This document shows, piece after piece, positions 17,897 to 61,569 of a stretch of 64,000 nucleotides of DNA. Below the pieces are notes generated by a model. It saw only the letters and a list, made by a program, of their open reading frames with translations, was not told the DNA's origin and searched no databases. The position numbers were made by a program, and so were the translations under genes. The DNA is from Octopus vulgaris. Taxonomy: Eukaryota. The DNA is taken from contig OX597817.1 in the NCBI GenBank assembly GCA_951406725.2, positions 175,398,001-175,462,000 on the forward strand. Reading direction: 5' to 3'. Within the stretch, counting starts at the first letter, position 1. The number at the start of each line of letters is the position of its first letter.

Positions 17897-18041
17897 CTTT
17901 ATTTTAAGCAGCAGAAAATTCAACAAAATCTGTTACTCTGAGTTTCTCGTTGCCGTTCATCAGACAGTAACTGTCTGATGAACGGCAACGAGAAACTCAG
18001 AGTAACAGATTTTGTTGAATTTTCTGCTGCTTAAAATAAAG
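17897..18041. repeat. Perfect palindrome, 72-bp arms, 1-nt centre (17969)
   Basis: ctttattttaagcagc...cagacagt-a-actgtctg...gctgcttaaaataaag. The element (to about 18112) is flanked by TA tracts. Confidence 0.97.
17971..18008 (+). ncRNA. Type I HHR motif (mirror copy at 17930-17967 on minus)
   Basis: ctgt-CTGATGA-a-cg[gcaa]cg-a-GAAA-ctcagag-TA-acag. Intact core, GNRA-capped short stem II, quasi-palindromic stem III, triplet GUA. Confidence 0.75.
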
Positions 18042-19565
18042 CATATTACTCTACCACTGGTATTTGAGTACTCTTTTTTCCACCTTGTTTCACATTTATG
18101 TGTTTACTCCGGTATATATATATATATATATATATATATATATATATAGATAGATAGATAGATATTAGGAAGATTTGCTTGTGATAAGAAATTGTAAAGA
18201 AATTAGATATATTCCAATAGCAAGAATAAAATGGGTCGAAACTTCTTACAGGAGACGTACTCTATTTTATTCCTCAATCGAGAGCACAGAATGATCAACC
18301 GATGAATAAAGCAGGCTTAATTTGCTTTATATTTGTGCTTTAGACGACTTATTACCAATTAAACAGTTTAATACAATGTTTATATTTCCATTATTTCAGA
18401 AGAAATAATTGAATCCTTTTTTTTGGCTAATTGTGCCGCATTTCAGTTTCTGAATTTAAAAAATATCTGCTTGAAATAAGAGGACCTCCATGGGTACAAC
18501 CATTTCCATACGGACAGTAAAACGTGGACATCACAGGGGCAAGCGTGGTAGTGTGGCGAAATGGCCTAGTGGTTAGGGCAGTGGACTCGCGGTCGTAGGA
18601 TCGCAGTTTCGATTCCCAGACCGGGCGTTGTGAGTGTTATGCCTAAATGGCAAATTCTATGAAATAAAGAAGCTAGCTTCCCAACCACAGTCCCACTGCG
18701 TGACAACCTTGGGCAAGTGTCTTTTATTATTATAGCTTCGGGCCGATCAAGGCTTTTTGAGTGGATTTGGTAAGCGGAAACTGAAAGAAACATGCCGTGT
18801 ATATATTTATGTGTTATTGTGTGTCAGTCTGTCTATCCACCCCCATCACCGCTTGACAACCGGTGGTAGTGTGTTTACGTTCCTGTAACGTAGCGGTTCG
18901 GCAAAGAGACCGATTGAATAAGTACCAGGCTTAACAAAATGAAGTCCTGCGGTCGATGCCCCAGCATGGTCGCAGTCTAATGACTGAAACAAGAATACGA
19001 TAAAACATAAAATATTGATTTTTAACATCAAAATATAGCTCCCATGGTGAGGACGCATATCATAGGGATCGGTATTTTTCACTCATGATCAGAAGACCGC
19101 GATTTCGATTCCTGGACTAGGTGGTGCTTTGTGTATTTATGCAAAATCCTTAATTTCACGCTGTTCCAGTTCATTTAGCTGTAAATCATTTCCGGCAATA
19201 GCTGTGAGGTAAACCATGCGACGGACCGGCGTCGTTTTCAATGCGAGTAGTGTAATTTCAATCACTTATACGCCATGGAAGCCGGCTTAAGACTCGGTCT
19301 TATAAAACCTAATGCTCATGAAAATAAATAAACGAATGAATGAATAAATAAATAAATGCTTTCAAAGTCCACCAAAAGAAGTTCAAGAGAGAAGGGGAGC
19401 AGAAAATAGAGTGAAAAGAGGATGAAAAAGAGAAGTAACGAAGTAATACTTTAAGTAATAATTTCTTTAAATATAAATGCTGGAAGCAATTCAAAATCCT
19501 TTTGAAAATTTAACAAAAGGAAATAAATAAATATCATTGAGATGAAAATAGGGAAATACGTATAT

Positions 19566-19800
19566 TATTGTATGTAGATTTTGCTGTGTCTGGGGAGAGT
19601 CAAATTGTCTTATTGCCTTATTATCTAACACACTCACCGATTCGATTTTCACTCATTTATTATTTTTATTTTTTATTTTAAAATTTTTGCTGCTTTTGCA
19701 ACCTTGTCAATAAGTGGAAATCGAATTGGTGAATGTGTTAGATAGTAAGGTATTAAGACAATATGACTCTGCCCAGATACAACAAAATTTGCTTCAACAC
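19566..19800. mobile_element. MITE-like element with about 80-bp imperfect TIRs
   Basis: ttttgctgtgtctggggagagtc...aacacactcaccgattcgatttt mirrored by aaatcgaattggtgaatgtgttag...gactctgcccagatacaacaaaa. Confidence 0.7.
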
Positions 19801-19932
19801 ACGAATTCACATAAAGAATCTTGCGAACTAAATACAAAAACAAAATAGCAGGTAGAGTTACCTACATTTATAAGTATTCAAAAGGAAAATATTTAGGAAA
19901 AAGAAATAGTTTCAATTCATATGTGATTACAT

Positions 19933-20310
19933 AGGCGTAGGAGTGGGTGGTAAGTAGCTTGCTTACGAACCATATGGTTCCGGGTTCAGAACCACTGCGT
20001 GGCACCTTGGGCAAGTGTCTTCTACTATAGCCTCGGTCCAACCTAAGCCTTGTGAGTGGATTTGGTAGACAGAAACTGAAAGAAGCCCGTCGTATATATG
20101 TATATATATATATATATATATATATATATATATATATATATATATATACATGTATGTGTGTGTGTGTGTGTGTGTGTATATGTTTGTGTGTCTGTGTTTG
20201 TCCCCGTAACATAGCGGGGATAAGTCCTGGGGTCGATTTGCTCGACTAAAGGCGGTGCTCCAGCATGACCACAGTTACATGACTGAAACAAGTAAAAGAG
20301 TAAAAGAGTA
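19933..20310 (+). mobile_element. SINE family B
   Basis: Head, gcaccttgggcaagtgtctt, internal (TA)n(TG)n and 3' end gtaaaagagtaaaagag. Confidence 0.9.
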
Positions 20311-20329
20311 TATGGGATTTCTCATTAGC

Positions 20330-58677: not shown

Positions 58678-59130
58678 CGCCATGATAGATCGCTATCCAC
58701 TAAACCCATTTCTATTTTCTCTCCCTGTTTATTTCTGTGTTCCTTTCTGTGGAAGAGCGTAGGCTCAAAACGCAAAAGACTTTCTCACTCCCCGAGCCTT
58801 AAACTAATACACCTGTTTGTTGTTTACACACCCGTCTTCGTCTTTTGTAAATTCTCACTATCTTTATATATATATATATATATATGTACGGAGAATTCAC
58901 ACAAAAAAAAAGGCAGGTGGTGTAGACAACAAATAGATGTATTAGTATAACGCTCTGGAAGTGAAAAAGTCTTTAACGTTTCGAGCCTACGCTCTTCCAC
59001 AGAAAGGAACACAGGAAGAAACAAGGAGAGAAAATAAAGAATGTGTAGTGGCTTGTGATCTATCATGGCGAAGGCCGGACAGAAGGGTCACACAGGAGAG
59101 CTAGGGAGAAGGGGAGATAACAAAGTGGTG
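58678..59130. mobile_element. Two diverged copies of an HHR-like element, tail-to-tail across a (TA)n tract
   Basis: Plus copy at 58678-58860 (motif 58743-58778, GAAA>AAAA). Minus copy at about 58890-59130 (motif 58971-59006: cttt-CTGTGGA-a-gagc[gtag]gctc-GAAA-cg-TT-aaag). Confidence 0.75.
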
Positions 59131-59456
59131 GTGATATATATATATATATATATATATATATATATATATATAATTAATTAATAAGGGTGAGAGAATTAGA
59201 TACTAATTTAATAGCATATCTATTCAACACCAAGTGGCCCAGTGCCTCGAGAAACCTGGATTATTATAATATTTTATAATATATTATAATATTTTATACA
59301 AAAATAAATATAAGAGAGTGGTCACTATGTGGCTCATTCTAGCACTAGAAAATCCAAAAGGTTTCAACCACAAAAATACGTTGTTTCCTATGAAAGTCAG
59401 TACGATTGTTAGCTCACACGAACAGGGCAAATAAAAAATAACAAAAATACAGATTA

Positions 59457-59537
59457 TTTTGGGACAATTGTTTCGCTATTAATGAATTAAATGTAATTTT
59501 ACTTACAAAAAACCCACTTGTAGCTCCTCAGCCAAAA
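59457..59537 (-). ncRNA. Canonical type I hammerhead ribozyme motif (left arm)
   Basis: Exact mirror of 59724-59804. Confidence 0.85.
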
Positions 59538-59723
59538 CTATCTGGATGAAATCCACTCAATCACACGCCAGATTTTACCATAACGATAAATACACGTGTG
59601 GTTCAATTGATTTGTTGGTAAGGGCATTTGAATTATAACGTCGGATGTAATCAATTGAACCACACGTGTATTTATCGTTATGGTAAAATCTGGCGTGTGA
59701 TTGAGTGGATTTCATCCAGATAG

Positions 59724-59804
59724 TTTTGGCTGAGGAGCTACAAGTGGGTTTTTTGTAAGTAAAATTACATTTAATTCATTAATAGCGAAACAATTGTCCC
59801 AAAA
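59724..59804 (+). ncRNA. Canonical type I hammerhead ribozyme motif (right arm)
   Basis: ttttgg-CTGAGGA-gcta[42 nt]tagc-GAAA-caattg-TC-ccaaaa. 6-bp stem I, complete CUGANGA/GAAA core, G10.1-C11.1 pair, palindromic stem III ACAATTGT, GUC site at 59796-59798. Confidence 0.87.
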
Positions 59805-61569
59805 TAATCTGTATTTTTGTTATTTTTTATTTGCCCTGTTCGTGTGAGCTAACAATCGTACTGACTTTCATAGGAAACATGTATTTTTGTGGTTGAAACC
59901 TTTTGGATTTTCTAGTGCTAGAATGAGCCACATAGTGACCATTCTCTTATATTTATTATTTATTTTTATTTTTATATATATATATATATATAATGCCAGT
60001 GCCGAAGCATGGGCACAGCTCATGAGCTGAAACTAGATAAAAAAAGATATATATGATAGAGCGAGTGAGAAAGGGAGAGAGAGAGAGAGAGAGAGAGAGA
60101 GAGAGAGAGAGAGAGAGAGAGAGAGAGAGAGAGAGAGACAGACAGACCAAGTGAAAGAGAGAAGATTATAGTTTATAGGATGCGTTTTGAAATAAGTTAA
60201 AACTGTTTCAGAAAGTGAAGCAAATGCAAGGTAGAGATAACAGCCTGAAAACTGGAGCAAACAACCTAATTAGTAGTTTGGACGTTTACCTTATATTTTG
60301 ATAACTCTAGTTTTTTTAACCCCGGAATATTGGAATATAAGAGAAAAAGAGAGAGGTACACACAGACACACATATATATATATACAAGCATTCATAGATG
60401 TGTCTGTATATGTACACATACATATGTACATCCGTATTAAAACGTGTATGCATACATTTATGTATTTCTGTCTATGTGCACCACTCTCTCTCTCTCTCTC
60501 ACTCTTTCTCTCCCAGTACGAATACTTATATATATATGCATATCTATGTATTCACACACACACATATCTATTTTTCTTTCTATCTGCGTATCTATCTATC
60601 TATCTATCTATCTATCTATCTATCTATCTATCTATCTATCTATCTATCTATCTATCTATCTATCTATCTATCTCTATTTATCTATCTATATATCTATCTA
60701 TGTTTCTATGTCTGTTTGTCTATCCAGATCTCTCTCTCTCTCTCTCTCTCTCTTTATATATATATATTTACATATATACATATATAAATATATGTATATA
60801 TATATATATATGTATATATATATATATATATATATATATATATGTATATATATATATATGTATGTATGTATGTATATATATATATAGAAATCTGGATAGA
60901 CAGATATATTTATATACATACATGCATACATTCACACAGAAAACACACTCACATATACACACGTTTATGAATGTGAACGTAAACTCAATAACGATTTACA
61001 GAATTAGCCATCGTTTTAGATCATTTATGTTTCCACGCACCAAAGGCAATAAATATTCGTTTCGCGTACCAACGACAAGCAATGCAACAACCTTTCAGGT
61101 CACACAACAACCGATACACACACTACGTATTGTATCATACACAAGAACATGCAGTGTTGCAGTAGATTTCATTATCCATCGAATCAAAGAGATCGATCGT
61201 TAATGCTGTAGTGGACAAAATTTCTTTTTGACACCTACTAACAAAACTAATAGTTAGTGACAACCGAAGCTGTCAGAAAATCGTTTAGGCTGTCTGCATT
61301 ATCGGTTCTTGCAATATGTTTATTAGTGATAATAGTCTTGTTTCGTATTATTAAACCCTTTCATTGAATTAAGCTGCTCGGATCAATAATTGTTCTAGCG
61401 TGCCACAAGAATCCTTGCTCTCCTATCGCTATCCTTTAATTTGACTGGCGAAAGAGATGTATCGAAATCTGTTTCATGTTAAAAACCTAATATCTAATGA
61501 TATTATATATATATAAAGTGCATTTTTTAATACATTTAATGCGTAAACTTGTAGCTGTTGTTGTTGTAG

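Follow-up and report, generated by a model that had tools for sequence, protein, structure and literature searches.

Hammerhead-bearing inverted repeats

The stretch of DNA analyzed here (the window) comprises 64 kb of the Octopus vulgaris genome (contig OX597817.1). It is AT-rich DNA of the animal type with many repeats, among them microsatellites and dispersed short repeats. We concentrated on five inverted repeats carrying hammerhead ribozyme (HHR) motifs, which are compared below with the ends of Penelope-like elements (PLEs). They lie at sites A (3961), B (17897), C (24124), D (56834) and E (59303), and we included a convergent pair, F (58678-59134). All five inverted repeats are present with arms that are 93-100% identical, and at 5/5 of them the 3′ side of the hammerhead points outward.

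The motifs were searched with a descriptor for minimal type I hammerheads (min-HHRs) permitting an unpaired base before helix II; otherwise the motifs of A and B are missed. At a score of at least 8 the window contains nine matches versus 0.2 per shuffle (10 shuffles), and among the nine are the left and right motifs of A, B and E. C scores 7.5 in its right arm, whereas its left motif (24274-24392) and that of D (56906-56935) were identified by eye. The descriptor places a plus-strand motif in the right arm of each of A, B, C and E, and for A, B and E also a minus-strand motif in the left arm. This arrangement, together with the left arm of C as judged by eye, bears out what an earlier reading of the letters alone (the sequence-only reading) had described for A, B, C and E. 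That reading had also assigned the left motif of D to the minus strand, correctly, but had called it decayed. The core of D is of the U3/A8 type, a covariation of min-HHRs which has been called natural (PMC4209133; for all papers cited by accession our statements refer to the excerpts available of them), and the motif may be a natural variant rather than a decayed one. The cores are intact in A, B and E and altered in both arms of C. Besides U3/A8, the D motif has an altered A13 position that is common to both arms. Furthermore, core position 4 is a C in four motifs of three unrelated families (24814, 24392, 5688 and 57416), which could be a recurrent variant or a recurrent mutation.

The arms of A (3961-4092 and 4252-4383) are identical at 123/132 positions with a spacer of 159 nucleotides (nt). 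B is a near-perfect palindrome. Its left arm (17897-17968, minus strand, min-HHR 17934-17963) adjoins a (TA)n tract and matches the right arm (17970-18041, plus strand, min-HHR 17975-18004) at 72/72 positions, so that the spacer is 1 nt and the hairpin center lies 5 nt upstream of the core. The right arm is followed by a candidate tail of 71 nt (18042-18112, plus strand), delimited by the microsatellite boundary alone, and then by (TA)n. In C the left arm (24124-24493, minus strand) contains the altered motif with a long loop II and a TATA-like box 41 nt upstream of the core; the right arm (24737-25082, plus strand, altered motif 24814-24932) lacks 22 nt which in the left arm are flanked by short direct repeats. 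Apart from this gap the two arms agree at 340/346 positions, and the spacer is 243 nt. The paired arms of D (56835-56927 and 56949-57041) are identical at 92/93 positions with a 21-nt spacer. The left arm in full (56835-56935, minus strand) contains the U3/A8-type motif and adjoins (TA)n, and the right arm (plus strand) begins within helix II and hence has no core; beyond it come a candidate tail of about 40 nt and (TA)n. The D junction in between (56928-56948) is, by eye, a patchwork of short stretches from either strand of helix II and loop II, which we read as serial template switches. The arms of E (59303-59612, minus strand, motif 59463-59531; 59649-59957, plus strand, motif 59730-59798) are identical at 307/309 positions with one gap and a 36-nt spacer.

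The five sites are not related to each other in sequence, as the sequence-only reading had stated: none of the 10 pairwise comparisons (0/10) exceeded its own shuffle maximum. In a self-comparison of the window each site matched only its own inverted arm and no tandem copies were found at any of the five. The evidence on the target differs between the sites. A has a target-site duplication (TSD) with 9/10 matching letters, B and D lie in (TA)n, E has an 8-nt TSD candidate (59239-59246/59996-60003) that does not abut the arms, and C has no TSD. A one-sided tail is defined by the family ends at A and by the flank only at B and D.

Rfam gave no hammerhead family among the 150 listed of 219 window matches, nor at site A. 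RNA folding clearly favors the hammerhead fold at E (z -2.8), with z -1.2 for the left arm of A and no support at the other motifs. Folding of single motifs is expected to be weak since such motifs are thought to work as dimers (PMC4209133). The other local inverted repeats of the window (662, 3020, 5873, 10616, 16933, 19623, 28379, 32330, 50079, 54648 and 55013) have no descriptor match of 6 or more. A motif at 36382-36496 was left uncounted; it has a 2-bp helix II and a very long loop and lies within a dispersed repeat with an inverted copy 27 kb away.

The sequence-only reading had called the outward geometry invariant, and this does not hold, as F is convergent. The inverted repeat at 58678-59070 is identical at 154/181 positions and centered on (TA)n, with a hammerhead-like motif on the plus strand in the left arm and on the minus strand in the right arm. 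The left copy (58678-58860, plus strand) carries a decayed motif at 58747-58774 and its 3′ end faces inward to the (TA)n. The right copy (58887-59134, minus strand, motif 58975-59002) has (TA)n on both sides and is 85% identical to the left one. The descriptor score of F is 6.5, which on its own is within the shuffle range; the motif is homologous to a solo motif at 5662. No TSD was found around the whole pair, and F looks like two independent insertions around one (TA)n microsatellite. In the window alone the orientation bias is not significant (5:1, P=0.22; 5:0, P=0.06). Solo motifs occur at 5662-5688 (minus strand, min-HHR-like, related to F, with its 3′ end running to (TA)n), at 15228-15302 (plus strand, about 40 nt before (TA)n) and at 57416-57450 (plus strand, found with the descriptor).

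Site A and the Penelope-like comparison loci

At site A a duplication with 9/10 identical letters (3952-3961 and 4412-4421) abuts both outer ends of the palindrome. The left arm (minus strand, min-HHR 4034-4069) is a tail-less PLE end. The right arm (4222-4383, plus strand, min-HHR 4275-4310), of which 4252-4383 is the paired part, belongs to a high-copy family and continues into a tail of about 29 nt (4384-4412, plus strand) which is not in the left arm and terminates at the distal 3′ end of the family. This end was defined from the contigs of sequencing run X1, of which 26,947 match 4231-4438. Contig depth collapses past 4412, where 135 contigs have loose ends. A further 148 contigs diverge behind 4369; their consensus opens with the five letters that close the left arm and then shows low agreement, which we interpret as the tail-less end in copies one repeat unit shorter. 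The left arm ends at the short end of the family, and the right arm extends about 29 nt farther, to the long end. Although the arms are as diverged from each other as copies of the family are, the TSD marks A as one event. The refuting condition of the sequence-only reading, arms as diverged as independent copies, consequently does not discriminate. All of the 15 listed of 38 joints in family A contigs are skips and none is a strand change. Three further runs with the same species label (X21-X23) gave 1, 61 and 0 reads on family A as compared with about 27,000 X1 contigs, which filtering or labelling may explain, and patterns of family A had no match in the metagenome, genome and viral contigs searched.

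The spacer of A contains a tRNA-like head with A and B boxes (4103-4157, plus strand) and then (AAC)n(AAT)n as far as about 4221. The box pattern, which we take to be that of tRNA-like A/B boxes, is expected 0.035 times per shuffled window. The head itself gave no tRNA with ARAGORN, no Rfam match and no support for a cloverleaf from folding; it could form the 5′ portion of the unit to which the right arm belongs. Tract 4103-4412 therefore joins a tRNA-like head, (AAC)n(AAT)n and the PLE-type hammerhead end of a high-copy family, all within one TSD. It is possible that the unit at site A is a high-copy, tRNA-headed short interspersed element (SINE) with a PLE end, hence using PLE enzymes. Among the titles listed from the literature searched, outside of which lie most subscription papers, none describes a tRNA-headed, PLE-dependent SINE. 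Further tRNA-like A/B-box heads, probably SINEs, are present at 8839 and 54007, both on the minus strand.

For comparison a degenerate min-HHR pattern was used to collect at least 121 metagenome loci, all from other organisms, with flanks of up to 1500 nt for 80 loci and about 300 nt for the remainder. Among the 121 listed loci 43 have a divergent partner, one has a convergent partner and 77 have none. When only the 88 listed loci with at least 250 nt on both sides are considered, the ratio of divergent to convergent is 32:0; removal of one duplicate (L014/L091) from all listed loci leaves 42:1 (P=1e-11) in eight sequence clusters. The convergent locus, L022, is a head-to-head pair with a third copy at 84% identity in a microsatellite, like F. 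The center of L119 falls inside the motif, again with the 3′ parts outward. Direct copies were seen in 3/121 listed loci.

The comparison loci also speak to the identity of the element. L020 has an open reading frame (ORF) that ends 132 nt upstream of the motif and has RVT_1 and GIY-YIG matches, both below the Pfam cut-off. The ORF of L034, which belongs to the main family, matches that of L020 at 41% identity (E 6e-35). Such ORF matches occur in 22 listed loci, the three queries included; a PDB search with the L020 ORF gave no match. Judged by these sequence matches, the motifs of the comparison set are PLE ends. An ORF with reverse transcriptase (RT) and GIY-YIG domains was found only in the comparison loci, upstream of similar motifs, and none in the window. 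The window sites agree with endonuclease-positive (EN+) PLEs in having a min-HHR in a terminal repeat, an inverted, 5′-truncated head-to-head copy (5/5) and, at A, B and D, a tail or candidate tail at one end and a TSD or (TA)n. We therefore regard each palindrome as very probably one insertion of the hammerhead-bearing end module, or pseudo-long terminal repeat (pLTR), of an EN+ PLE, a reading that is direct at A and by analogy at B-E.

Two other explanations of the palindromes bear on these data. The orientation bias could have arisen after insertion, by selective loss of convergent pairs among independent copies or by break-induced inversion, or the repeats could be DNA transposons like miniature inverted-repeat transposable elements (MITEs). 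Convergent pairs do occur (F, L022), solo copies are the majority (77/121 listed loci), and the window has other inverted repeats that resemble DNA transposons. However, the pair as a whole is enclosed by TSDs of variable length, its ends differ from each other and lie at fixed sites, and the junctions vary by locus, which makes this explanation very improbable. The unequal ends at A, B and D and the comparison TSDs of 10-15 nt, which are not of fixed length, in particular do not fit a MITE or other terminal-inverted-repeat DNA transposon. Still more improbable is that the near-perfect palindromes B (72/72) and E (307/309) are fold-back artefacts of sequencing or assembly, as their high identity might suggest: A has nine mismatches and a TSD, C has six plus an indel, one-sided extensions are seen at B and D, and the geometry recurs in unrelated assemblies.

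The sequence-only reading had taken the geometry as a footprint of integration. The TSDs around the whole unit at A and in comparison palindromes and the arm ends defined by the family uphold this for single-event pairs, but not for the convergent pairs F and L022, and as a new rule it is anticipated by published PLE anatomy.

Tails, junctions and the formation of the palindromes

The statistics on the mechanism come from the main family of the comparison set, in which 34 palindromes were examined and 30 could be classified for tail status. The 3′ ends of the arms lie mostly at two sites about 50-60 nt apart. The pairs comprise 25 one-tailed, 5 untailed and 0 two-tailed, where independence expects 14.6, 10.2 and 5.2 (permutation P=1e-4). 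When pairs in which an arm stops before the short end are left out, the strict count is 21:3:0 (P=2.6e-4). TSDs of 10-15 nt were found in 13/30 palindromes, every one of them one-tailed, against a null of 1.5%. Non-consensus letters shared between the arms number 18 where 3.3 are expected, and the distance from arm to arm is 5.8% versus 7.6% to other copies (P=0.002; 28 comparable pairs each). The palindromes are thus single events with outward geometry, two fixed 3′ ends and a bias toward one tail. In other comparison families 5/9 palindromes have TSD-like matches with one-sided extensions; as there is no null for these they were not used as evidence.

Of the 25 one-tailed pairs the tailed arm is 5′-longer in 12, shorter in 11 and equal in 2. 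The walk along the 5′ extent was disturbed by indels, and about 7 of the 11 cases with a longer tail-less arm are solid by eye. An earlier 16:4 excess of tail-less arms reaching further 5′ was rejected, since palindromic loci had served as references, and the analysis was redone with the 12:11 result. The 5′ ends of the arms fall within -10 to +20 of the core in 64/68 cases, and 25/34 solo copies end at -9 to 0. A TATA-like hexamer is present at -37/-38 in 11/14 long copies (5 of them exact). Transcription generally starts about 30 nt from a TATA box, and the hexamer, 30 nt before -7, suggests a transcription start near -7. Of the window sites, C carries a comparable box at -41, but C and E run well beyond such a start. 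Five comparison junctions (L007, L081, L084, L087 and L104) contain, as does D, additional short fragments of the hammerhead region that alternate in strand, which are read as serial template switching.

Priming from both ends of one break always gives outward 3′ ends, so that orientation alone cannot separate the models. We infer that both target strands primed on one RNA, rather than that a cDNA folded back, and would give this an even chance; it is favored because of the one-tail rule, the shared variants and the lack of polarity between tail and 5′ extent. The GIY-YIG endonuclease would place one nick in each target strand, with about 10-15 nt between the two and often within AT-rich or (TA)n DNA. 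Each 3′-OH would then prime the RT on the same RNA, beginning at either of two fixed internal start sites, or would do so in an asymmetric ribonucleoprotein dimer. With two start sites one cDNA would receive the tail and the other would not. Both cDNAs would either head toward the 5′ end of the RNA, which in many families probably sits just a few bases before the core, or come to a halt within the hammerhead, and their 3′ ends would join via short complementary stretches of the hammerhead stems. The 3′ ends would point outward because each cDNA starts at a target end, and convergent pairs would need two separate events in one microsatellite. Consistent with this scheme, the window offers the TSD and the family-defined ends of A, the one-sided extensions and (TA)n of B and D, and for these two also junctions located at the hammerhead or inside it.

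Fold-back, the second mechanism offered by the sequence-only reading, would let the 3′ end of the cDNA snap back and copy itself, or involve self-priming on antisense RNA (PMC3846280), with the endonuclease resolving the second end at the tail boundary. The 1-nt hairpin center of B, the serial switches of D and short microhomologies at many comparison junctions are what such a process would leave, and it accounts directly for the shared variants and the one-tail rule. In its strict form, however, the tailed first-strand arm must be 5′-longer, whereas the split is 12:11. In L033 and L046 it is the arm without a tail that extends to -7 and -9, apparently the point of run-off, and the tailed one halts at +1 and +7. 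Simple fold-back therefore fits worse than both-strand priming on one RNA, and we consider it rather unlikely. Alternatively, each subunit of a protein dimer could bring its own RNA to prime one target strand, the cDNAs being joined head-to-head. The Poseidon PLE protein PAc from Anolis is predicted to form a dimer and extends both strands (PMC11167929), and the arms of A are as diverged as independent copies. But independent choice of start sites expects about 5 two-tailed pairs of 30 where none was observed, and rare variants are common to both arms in L085 and L093, so that two RNAs are improbable.

We may go one step further than both-strand priming on one RNA. In the twin priming of LINE-1, a long interspersed element (LINE), a single RNA serves as template for priming from each of the two target strands, and the products are joined by microhomology, which results in an inversion. 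LINE-1 inverts different segments of the RNA, while here the same segment occurs twice. As a tentative idea, overlapping twin priming, in which the second copy of the same stretch of one RNA displaces the first, might generate the inverted ends of PLEs, with site A being perhaps a SINE with a PLE end. Both copies would run off at the transcription start just 5′ of the hammerhead, whose stems would supply the microhomology for joining. The phrase "twin priming" was not found in the PLE papers listed from the literature searched, a set that leaves aside most subscription papers.

Several points weigh against these interpretations. The junctions of C and E lie 80-100 nt upstream of the core, without a clear TSD or tail. 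No remnant of a PLE ORF was found in the window (best E 0.47), which is expected for stubs. The arms of A, at 93% identity, fall into the modal class of 90-95% of family contigs (13,197/26,947) and share only 1/5 listed right-arm letters that differ from the family majority (4348). The mechanistic statistics derive mostly from one family in other organisms, and in it 5/30 pairs are untailed and 17/30 have no TSD. The copies were drawn from several assemblies, which inflates the distance from an arm to other copies, and gene conversion from arm to arm could also produce shared variants. Moreover, the search pattern obliges one arm to reach at least the core, and deletion at the palindrome centers could erase the polarity expected of fold-back.

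Neighboring elements, known systems and significance

Other mobile elements are present in the window. The region 5873-7213 has terminal inverted repeats of about 110 nt, TA flanks and a frameshifted transposase-like frame, and from its translated motifs we take it to be Tc1/mariner-like. Frames at about 32600-35400 (within 32330-35400) are presumably Helitron-like Rep/helicase frames, again from translated motifs; they are fragmented, on the minus strand and adjoin the inverted repeat 32330-32475/32675-32830. Hammerhead-free inverted repeats, MITE-like or nested, lie at 3020-3794, 28379-28507, 50079-50332 and 54648-55950. Two copies of a dispersed repeat of about 580 nt (36145-36724 and 63420-63999) are 87% identical and lie 27 kb apart in opposite orientation. 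The tract 15430-16080, which adjoins (TA)n, is presumably a LINE-like reverse-transcriptase C-terminal fragment.

The published anatomy of EN+ PLEs is close to what we observe. PMC3846280 describes an inverted pLTR, units enclosed by TSDs of 8-10 bp, palindromes at the junctions and, on one inverted pLTR, a tail of 31 bp; it calls the head-to-head arrangement "most frequently observed" and proposes self-priming. PMC8557442 describes the same insertion anatomy with (TA)n targets, and according to PMC2377424 (insertions in its Figure 1C) the inverted form is frequent in D. virilis and a transcript begins in the pLTR. The window sites share with Penelope/Poseidon, Neptune and Naiad the head-to-head inverted copy, the tail at one end, the TSD of the whole unit, the palindromic junction and the AT-rich or (TA)n targets. 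Unlike in described EN+ PLE insertions, both arms here are ORF-less stubs of 70-370 nt, and the candidate tails reach up to about 60-70 nt as compared with 30-40. A count of one-tailed and two-tailed pairs was not found in the excerpts of published PLE descriptions, whose supplements may hold such counts.

The motifs resemble the min-HHRs of metazoan PLEs as defined in PMC4209133 in the unpaired base before helix II, the palindromic helix III, the short helix I and the U3/A8 variant; C and E differ in having long loops II. The same paper reports dual motifs in Schistosoma on opposite strands and 100-700 bp apart, in a passage that makes no mention of their orientation. PAc nicks and extends both strands in vitro, with two RT start sites that bound the tail (PMC11167929), as in the reaction we propose; the use of these sites, however, was alike on both strands. 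Hammerhead cleavage is dispensable for PAc, and the arms here run through the uncleaved motif; joined cDNAs or inverted products are not described in the available part of that paper, whereas inverted pairs are what is found here. Non-LTR (long terminal repeat) retrozymes (bioRxiv 10.64898/2026.07.22.740005) are likewise short, non-coding, equipped with type I hammerheads and related to PLE pLTRs. They are, according to the excerpt, head-to-tail tandem arrays, and the five sites, which have no head-to-tail tandem hammerhead units, do not fit a non-LTR retrozyme.

The head-to-head geometry itself is thus already known, and the counts of tail status and polarity are the added part. How the inverted ends and tails of PLEs are formed is named as an unresolved problem in PMC8557442. 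The lack of two-tailed pairs, the shared variants, the missing polarity and the junctions at the 5′ edge of the hammerhead yield predictions that are testable in the PAc in vitro system. For annotation, outward pairs of high identity are to be taken as single insertions and inward pairs around a microsatellite as separate insertions. If true, overlapping twin priming would account at once for why the pairs face outward, why one tail is the rule, why there is a TSD and why short hammerhead stubs are abundant.

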